From sequence record PQ850616.1: DNA of 38,040 nt. The stretch is one strand, 5' to 3'. Below the pieces are notes generated by a model. The model saw only the letters and a program-made list of their open reading frames with translations, was not told the DNA's origin and ran no database searches. The first letter of the stretch is position 1; every line of letters starts with the position of its first letter. The position numbers and the translations under genes were made by a program. Shown here piece after piece: positions 5,058-5,585 of the stretch. This DNA is from Escherichia phage Louie.

Positions 5058-5585
5058 TTATTTCGATATCGTGATGTTGTTTTCCTCGTCAAACTTTCTG
5101 ATTACTTCTTTCGCCTCTTCGAATGAAGAACATACTTTTTGCACTCTTGCATTAAGCAGTCGCTTATGAGCGATCCATCTTTTCCGCGTGTTGCAAAAGT
5201 AAACTCCAGATATTCCGCTGGAGTTATTTTTAGATAGTTTGATTCTATTCCTTTGGTTTGCTGATTTTTTCACAAGACGAAGATTTTCAATTCTGTTGTC
5301 GTGGCGAATCCCATTTATATGGTCAATTTCCATGCCTTCTGGAATATCTCCGTTAAACATTACCCATACGATGCGGTGTGCTAGCCACTTAATGCCGTTA
5401 ATTCTTATGCGGATATATCCATTGCTTTCTAAAAGACCAGCAACTTTCCCAGCGTGTTTTGCATTCCAAACGTTGTGATAGTTGCGATTCTTTTTGTTGT
5501 TGAAAAACTCAGAGCTTCTGGCTTTCCAAACCAAAGAACCATCGCGGTATTCGAAGTATTCATTCAGTTCCATGCTCATAACCAT
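5058..5585 (-). CDS. HNH homing endonuclease with AP2-like DNA-binding domain
   Basis: Motifs IDHINGIRHDNRIENLRLV and SGISGVYF (HNH_3 + AP2 architecture); AT-rich; reverse strand between scaffold and coat genes; exact start among MVMSM uncertain. Confidence 0.75.
   Translation of the reverse strand: MVMSMELNEYFEYRDGSLVWKARSSEFFNNKKNRNYHNVWNAKHAGKVAGLLESNGYIRIRINGIKWLAHRIVWVMFNGDIPEGMEIDHINGIRHDNRIENLRLVKKSANQRNRIKLSKNNSSGISGVYFCNTRKRWIAHKRLLNARVQKVCSSFEEAKEVIRKFDEENNITISK

Follow-up and report, generated by a model that had tools for sequence, protein, structure and literature searches.

A probable free-standing homing endonuclease cassette at the scaffold/coat junction of P22-like temperate phages

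Free-standing homing endonuclease genes (HEGs) are familiar from virulent phages, T4, SPO1, ICP1 and Skunavirus among them; clean population pictures from temperate phages are rarer. Their intronless homing, their co-conversion of flanking DNA and their antisense promoters have been reviewed (PMC2988022). In T4, the mobA–mobE and seg genes lie between conserved genes, target a neighbouring essential gene and co-convert their flanks, and the host expression signals embedded in the cassettes discourage cassette loss (PMC2988022). An HNH nuclease joined to an AP2 domain is a recognised HEG architecture, found near essential or capsid genes (PMC10055350); this family, from phages, cyanobacteria and ciliates, includes the ‘IPA-HNH’ of phage ICP1 (ref. 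42 of PMC10055350). In Skunavirus, one study describes I-HmuI-like HNH enzymes whose presence varies among close relatives and which cluster by insertion location, with marker exclusion shown experimentally for some of them (PMC12724721). I-HmuI itself, from Bacillus phage SPO1 (1U3E), is an intron-encoded nicking enzyme with a C-terminal helix-turn-helix.

The locus described here, in Escherichia phage Louie (record PQ850616.1; ‘the window’ denotes the whole analysed stretch of 38,040 nucleotides), is not a new kind of system. With the HNH–AP2 HEGs it shares an N-terminal HNH and a C-terminal AP2 domain, a free-standing gene and a place beside essential or structural genes; it differs in being a canonical Pfam HNH_3 match, for which ICP1 IPA-HNH is too divergent, in residing in a temperate P22-like podovirus and in having an insertion point defined to the nucleotide. 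The Louie protein is free-standing with an AP2-fold end, unlike I-HmuI, to which it is 24% identical. As in the T4 mob and seg systems, the gene is intergenic between conserved genes, and the coat gene next to it is the presumed target. Embedded host signals are shared too, being promoters for downstream genes in T4 and the only Shine-Dalgarno and ATG of the coat gene in Louie. T4 free-standing enzymes usually cut hundreds of base pairs away, whereas the putative Louie site lies at the insertion point, as for intron-encoded enzymes; and T4 cassettes are mostly co-oriented and promoter-less, whereas the Louie gene is antisense with a putative promoter of its own. Co-conversion beyond a 39-nt private block is undetectable in Louie, linkage disequilibrium (LD) being nil at 19 bp. 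The Skunavirus enzymes belong to another host and phage family, and the marker exclusion reported for them is experimental (PMC12724721), whereas the P22-like cassette is known from sequence.

The genes at the locus are as follows.
4146–5057, plus strand: scaffolding protein gene of gp8 type, the left flank (Pfam PF09306, Phage-scaffold, 5e-179, and junction alignment)
5058–5585, minus strand: HNH–AP2 endonuclease reading frame, 528 bp, 175 amino acids from the ATG of the longest open reading frame
5582–5585, minus strand: position of the HNH Shine-Dalgarno, AGGG in 15 of 16 relatives and ATGG in Louie
5647–6942, plus strand: coat (major capsid) gene of gp5 type, the right flank (Pfam PF11651, P22_CoatProtein, 1.5e-164)

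The 5058–5585 frame matches both Pfam HNH_3 and PHROG 99 (‘HNH endonuclease’, 6e-51) and is therefore a real gene, not a chance reading frame. An earlier note, made from the letters of the window, had placed an AT-rich, antisense HNH gene of 528 bp between scaffold and coat, and both points hold: the reading frame lies between a scaffold gene that ends at 5057 and a coat start at 5647, and its GC content is 0.390, compared with 0.529 for scaffold and 0.510 for coat; the 61-nt spacer at 5586–5646 falls to 0.262. The HNH stop, the reverse complement of 5058–5060, abuts the scaffold TAA at 5055–5057 (TAA/TTA), and a Pfam search of Louie places gp3/gp2 terminase and portal genes upstream of the scaffold gene. 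The family-consensus start is probably the ATG at 5573, which gives 171 amino acids and is the PGAP annotation in prophages. Where position 5584 is C, as in 15 of 16 relatives, an AGGG Shine-Dalgarno sits 8 nt upstream of this ATG; the A at 5584 is a singleton of Louie that weakens the HNH Shine-Dalgarno and creates the additional in-frame ATG at 5585. This singleton may lower nuclease expression in the Louie isolate. Since Louie is a viable temperate Lederbergvirus carrying the cassette, the insertion is compatible with normal growth. As a separate observation, a short tandem hexanucleotide repeat lies just downstream of the coat gene at about 7126–7170 (SQSQSQ and ESEPESEPE in overlapping reading frames); APC_JM3.2 has a repeat_region annotation there, and the length and gene calls of the repeat vary among relatives.

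Alignment with insert-less relatives, the comparison that the earlier note had proposed, set the insertion point to the nucleotide: a cassette of 628 bp (5058–5685) replaces 38 bp running from the overlap of scaffold stop and coat start (TAATG) through coat codon 13. By megablast, one phage, Dewey, carries the insert at 98.9% identity, and five records at about 97.5% identity lack roughly 590 bp; the insert-less phage records used were IME10 (three entries), APC_JM3.2, CurroJimenez/Bas106 and HZ41. Scaffold and coat are normally adjacent, as the note had held, with the scaffold TAA overlapping the coat ATG as TAATG in IME10, APC_JM3.2, Bas106 and HZ41, and likewise in P22 and in about 190 E. 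coli prophages. The left edge is exact, Louie matching the empty allele up to the scaffold stop and continuing at once with the HNH stop. The right edge lies beyond the coat ATG, in that codons 2–13 (5650–5685) differ from all four empty-site phages; 14 of 39 nt at the coat 5′ end are mismatched against the empty allele, over a background of about 2% across the rest of the gene. On its coat side the cassette supplies two elements.
5632–5637, plus strand: private coat Shine-Dalgarno TAAGGT, cassette-supplied and kept in the diverged cassettes L010, L011 and L016
5647–5685, plus strand: cassette-private coat start, a new ATG with recoded codons 2–13, including GGG CAG for the empty-site GGT CAA

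The note's claim of a separate coat ribosome-binding site is thus borne out by TAAGGT and the new ATG; as read from these signals, the cassette replaces TAATG translational coupling with independent coat initiation. The recoded block occurs in 16 of 16 cassette copies examined and in none of the genomes with the uninterrupted allele A described below. It changes the coat protein only by A2T, N4K and L13I, which are conservative, and the coat N-terminus is otherwise kept. By its layout, then, the cassette is built so as not to harm the phage, with an antisense HNH gene, a new Shine-Dalgarno and ATG, and a preserved coat N-terminus. The insert lies between two complete genes, scaffold and coat both being full length. 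An intron- or intein-borne HEG was considered and rejected: both flanking genes are whole and Rfam returned no match in 4800–5900 at E ≤ 1.

Across 5,426 complete Escherichia coli genomes, the cassette is present in 20 at ≥98.9% identity, about 9% of the roughly 217 comparable prophages, and always in the order scaffold, antisense HNH, coat within P22-like prophages. We distinguish an uninterrupted, empty allele A (about 190 E. coli genomes), an allele B that is empty with cassette-type codons (8 genomes, H121–H128) and an allele C, the cassette allele of Louie. IMG/VR and metagenomes added 17 further cassette copies and more than 120 further empty sites; scans of GTDB species representatives and of metagenomes yielded no new orthologous lineage. 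In Dewey and in RefSeq prophages the existing annotation of the gene is HNH endonuclease. A literature search for earlier accounts of an HNH placed between genes 8 and 5 in P22-like phages found nothing; neither the announcement of Louie and Dewey nor the BASEL paper takes up the gene, and the HNH of the epsilon34 paper is a different one, in the early-left operon.

The encoded protein is an I-HmuI-like HNH_3 nuclease with a C-terminal AP2-fold domain, in the order HNH then AP2, and nuclease activity is predicted from the following features (residues in the 171-residue numbering).
5250–5384, minus strand: HNH_3 catalytic core with the bba-metal motif (Pfam HNH_3), aligning to I-HmuI 1U3E
5319–5324 (D84-H85), 5283–5285 (N97) and 5256–5258 (N106), minus strand: invariant core residues in a comparison of 61 homologues
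5079–5216, minus strand: C-terminal AP2/ERF-fold DNA-binding domain, three beta-strands and a helix, residues ~120–165

The match to Pfam HNH_3 (PF13392) scores 78 bits over a cutoff of 24.8 (E 4e-22), and a PDB sequence search recovers I-HmuI 1U3E at E 8e-4; NCBIfam gave no match for the protein. The D-H general base, the structural N and the metal-binding N align with the I-HmuI motif. D84, H85, N97, N106 and N109 (5247–5249, just outside the HNH_3 core) are unchanged in the 61 homologues and in four orthologues. An AlphaFold2 model built from the 61 homologues (pLDDT 92.8) shows fold similarity to a solved member, with I-HmuI the best structural match. The AP2 match in Pfam (PF00847) is below threshold, at 17.6 bits against a cutoff of 33.3 and covering only model positions 1–19, and PF00847 is present in many homologues. 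The gene is under purifying selection, with dN/dS of 0.054 between the window and L010; in other pairs synonymous sites are saturated and pN is 0.17–0.26, and recent variants comprise 7 synonymous and 4 nonsynonymous changes. Each of the 21 close copies has an intact reading frame, as do four diverged lineages, the exception in the protein database being one shortened copy of 102 amino acids (P0005).

Orthologues at 83, 74 and 59% identity in the protein database all lie antisense between P22-type scaffold and coat genes. Identities of HNH, scaffold and coat to those of Louie are 83, 74 and 89% in L010, 74, 73 and 72–74% in L011 and L012, and 59, 50 and 68% in L016; such tracking of HNH divergence with flank divergence also fits long vertical residence with occasional loss. 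The architecture is common to these loci: the HNH stop abuts the scaffold stop, a spacer of 60–67 nt includes a coat Shine-Dalgarno, and a putative -10 element on the HNH strand is overlapped by a hairpin. Two distant genes at the same junction came to light in a panel of 224 P22-type coat loci.
L314, 1892–2428, minus strand: HNH–AP2 gene, 178 amino acids, 47% identity
L405, 1899–2447, minus strand: HNH–AP2 gene, 182 amino acids, 38% identity

The orthologues and both distant genes are antisense and within about 6 nt of the coat ATG. At their left junctions L314 and L405 still have TAATG and TAATGGCT, left over from the original coat start, which implies that at least three HNH–AP2 lineages inserted within about 6 nt of each other. 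The L405 insert removes coat codon 2 and interrupts the coat gene between that codon and codon 3. In L314 the scaffold and HNH stops are additionally separated by a terminator-like hairpin (TGGCACAATAAGTGCCATTT). Among isolated phages the diverged cassettes have no close relatives (none for L011, only coat matches of about 70% for L016), so a replicate of the recoding was drawn from IMG/VR: L012 against the empty L414 shows 8 of 30 nt mismatched at the coat 5′ end, an enrichment that is only moderate over a local background of 6–10% (6.4% for the pair).

The empty junction is strongly conserved at the nucleotide level, reading AAAGGAAT...ATAATGGC...GAAGGTCAA in 38 haplotypes whose coat identity spans 65–99%. 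Codons 6–7 of the coat gene in these empty haplotypes are GGTCAA (25), GGCCAA (6), GGTCAG (5) or GGGCAA (1), with GGGCAG in allele B only. In cassettes they are GGG CAG in all four orthologous lineages and GGA CAG in L314, while L405 keeps GGTCAA as in empty sites, so that GGR CAG marks five of six cassette lineages, a pattern confounded by shared descent of the cassette. We regard GGT CAA to GGG CAG as a candidate self-immunity change. These data fit, but do not prove, a nuclease that recognises the conserved junction and spares its own genome, where the site is split and recoded. Perfect linkage of the recoded block to the cassette is by itself no evidence of immunity, because the block is too diverged to recombine and co-transfers anyway. 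Its amino-acid changes (MTLK...I) match a natural coat lineage, L462, which is empty and reads MTLK... with GGC CAA; given this protein match, the block looks like donor ancestry plus cassette-specific synonymous changes. We also observed that the synonymous positions of coat codons 5–7 (GAA GGT CAA) are conserved across coat lineages only 65% identical. Together with the conserved AAAGGAAT...ATAATGGC stretch, these codons suggest an RNA-level constraint on the coupled start that would be independent of the nuclease.

Allele B, which is found on a coat sub-lineage that has a 3-nt indel, is empty and TAATG-coupled, and its coat codons 4–13 are identical to those of the cassette allele (GGG CAG...). 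It may be a site with natural resistance, the footprint of cassette loss or the lineage from which the private block came.
L007, 2514–2560: allele B junction, found also in L185, L195 and L310 and in the 8 E. coli genomes

The spacer between the HNH and coat genes contains the remaining signals.
5612–5620, minus strand: putative extended -10 element TGCTATACT facing the HNH gene, 38 nt upstream of ATG 5573, called by eye
5587–5623, no strand: inverted repeat/hairpin from a repeat search, arms 5587–5596 and 5614–5623, 90% complementary

Five of six cassette lineages have the pattern TGnTAnnnT on the HNH-sense strand, 27–38 nt from the ATG, and it is absent from the late-sense strand in the cassette lineages compared; a two-hexamer promoter scan of 5586–5646 returned no promoter on either strand. 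A coat promoter in the spacer, which the earlier note had expected, has no support, given the negative scan and the confinement of the extended -10 to the HNH strand. Nor is one required, since the P22 late operon is a single antiterminated transcript able to read through the insert. The note's overall interpretation is thus partly supported: it stands for the coat ribosome-binding site and lacks support for the coat promoter, and its convergent transcription is plausible, given the -10 read by eye on the HNH strand.

The left arm of the hairpin, on the HNH strand, overlaps the -10 element. A hairpin occupies the equivalent place in all four orthologous lineages and also in L314, with arm sequences that differ between lineages; a kept position with entirely different arms suggests a structure-level role. 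An autorepressor operator like that of I-TevI (PMC2988022) was the model considered for this repeat, and autorepression by the AP2 domain is not favoured, because this domain hardly varies between lineages and the arms do. A further terminator-like hairpin within the HNH gene (5202–5225) is not conserved in the five other cassette lineages and was put down to chance.

We consider it probable that this cassette of P22-like phages is built around a free-standing homing endonuclease with site-specific action; cleavage, the target site and drive are what we infer from the sequence. In this model, a single cell would hold a cassette-bearing genome, whether a co-infecting phage or a resident prophage, together with an empty-site relative. 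The HNH enzyme would nick or cut the empty allele at the conserved junction or right beside it (...AAAGGAAT..ATAATGGC....GAAGGTCAA...), and repair off the cassette-bearing genome would copy the cassette in, with crossovers just outside 5058 and 5685. Carriers would be immune, since the insert interrupts their site and recoding alters it further, GGT CAA becoming GGG CAG among other changes. Antisense orientation and a private promoter of sigma-70 type would allow the nuclease to be made independently of the late operon, with late read-through transcription later opposing HNH expression; coat mRNA would still come by read-through from the late promoter, only its translation start being new.

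A tentative alternative, which we hold to be possible though clearly less likely, is that the nuclease is kept chiefly, and not only as a selfish homing element, for its use against competitors. When an empty-site P22-like phage superinfects or co-infects, the enzyme would cut the essential start of its coat gene, excluding the rival's markers and favouring the carrier. Expression would come from the sigma-70-type promoter of the cassette, possibly in the prophage as well. This proposal overlaps with homing, the sole difference being who benefits. Strong purifying selection across four deeply diverged lineages and the long occupation of one site would suit it, as would a putative independent promoter oriented against the late operon. 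The carriers are temperate, 20 of them resident prophages, and marker exclusion by I-HmuI-like HNH enzymes is reported from Skunavirus (PMC12724721). The frequency of the cassette, however, at about 9% of comparable prophages, suggests no large advantage to its carriers.

Mobility was assessed in 21 cassette-bearing and 94–118 empty sequences. Presence or absence of the cassette is polymorphic at one precise site among otherwise near-identical genomes. Nucleotide diversity of the flanks within carriers (pi 0.011–0.020) equals that within non-carriers and the divergence between the groups (dxy), and carriers are therefore not a clade; the nearest neighbour of 13 of 20 carrier haplotypes is a non-carrier. 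The cassette itself has a pi of 0.0040, below all 67 equal-sized flank windows (minimum 0.0078, median 0.0205; 0 of 67 as low), making it 4–5 times less diverse than its flanks. For every single-nucleotide polymorphism (SNP) within 200 bp, r2 with cassette presence is ≤0.015, the nearest SNP lying 19 bp off on each side, and the maximum anywhere in the region is 0.066. Louie and Dewey, two isolates from one sewage plant, show 2 differences in 633 cassette sites and 22 in 1257 coat sites. The lack of LD at 19 bp, together with a diversity lower than that of the flanks, indicates that the cassette moves horizontally and that its placement on many flank backgrounds is more recent than their divergence.

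The same data bear on a third explanation, in which the cassette is old cargo shuffled by ordinary, frequent homologous recombination and the HNH has another role or none in mobility. Absence of LD could indeed come from generally high recombination among P22-like prophages and not from nuclease-driven conversion, for LD is essentially nil throughout the region and not just at the cassette edges; P22-like genomes are notoriously mosaic (PMC11990801), and HNH, scaffold and coat co-diverge. We nevertheless judge this passive reading improbable: a diversity below every flank window points to a recent sweep across haplotypes, the arrival of at least three HNH–AP2 lineages within 6 nt of one conserved site is hard to obtain without site-specific targeting, and the catalytic residues are invariant with a low dN/dS.

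A decaying, inactive remnant of a past invasion is very improbable. The damaged HNH Shine-Dalgarno of Louie (the 5584 singleton) and the persistence of a foreign, AT-rich composition would be expected of one, but the reading frame remains intact in the 21 close copies and four diverged lineages, and the low dN/dS and invariant catalytic motif also count against it. A packaging-associated HNH of the HK97 gp74 type, assisting terminase, is effectively refuted, for although the gene sits in the head-morphogenesis block 3 kb from the terminase genes, it is dispensable (about 90% of near-identical viable relatives, such as IME10 and CurroJimenez, lack it), it runs antisense to a packaging operon that already has P22-type gp3/gp2 headful terminase genes, and its family (HNH_3 with AP2) and best structural match (I-HmuI) point elsewhere.

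Returning to the homing cassette, a bolder form of that reading, which we think rather unlikely, is that the junction is an ancient homing site contested by at least three HNH–AP2 lineages. In lysogens the cassette would be expressed from a hairpin-gated sigma-70 promoter of its own and would serve the prophage as a weapon, cutting the coat start of empty-site relatives that enter the cell, and allele B, empty with GGG CAG, would be a naturally resistant allele. If this were true, alleles A, B and C would make up a complete, tractable cycle of homing, resistance and loss in a temperate phage population.

Two other reading frames of the window are of related type. One, at 22694–23161 on the minus strand, is of HNH–AP2 type (155 amino acids, 41% identical to the 5058 gene) and lies in the early-left region between a RecT-like gene (23148–24056) and the reading frame 22215–22697, in the same orientation as these two genes and with an overlap of a few bases at each end; it probably encodes another free-standing homing endonuclease. 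The other, at 32852–33361 on the plus strand, encodes 169 amino acids with the motif EVNHKDGNKLNNKVENLEW, and is I-HmuI-like with a helix-turn-helix-looking C-terminus. With these two, there would be three nuclease-type selfish genes in a 38-kb temperate phage.

What makes the cassette useful is its nucleotide-resolved insertion, hundreds of natural empty sites and a candidate resistant allele B, along with three culturable partners: Louie and Dewey with the cassette, and CurroJimenez with the empty site. Its target would be the translationally coupled scaffold/coat junction of the best-studied capsid assembly system, where the element appears to avoid harm to its host by substituting a private ribosome-binding site for coupling and by keeping the coat N-terminus. 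This natural replacement of coupling could serve to test how far the scaffold:coat expression ratio depends on it.
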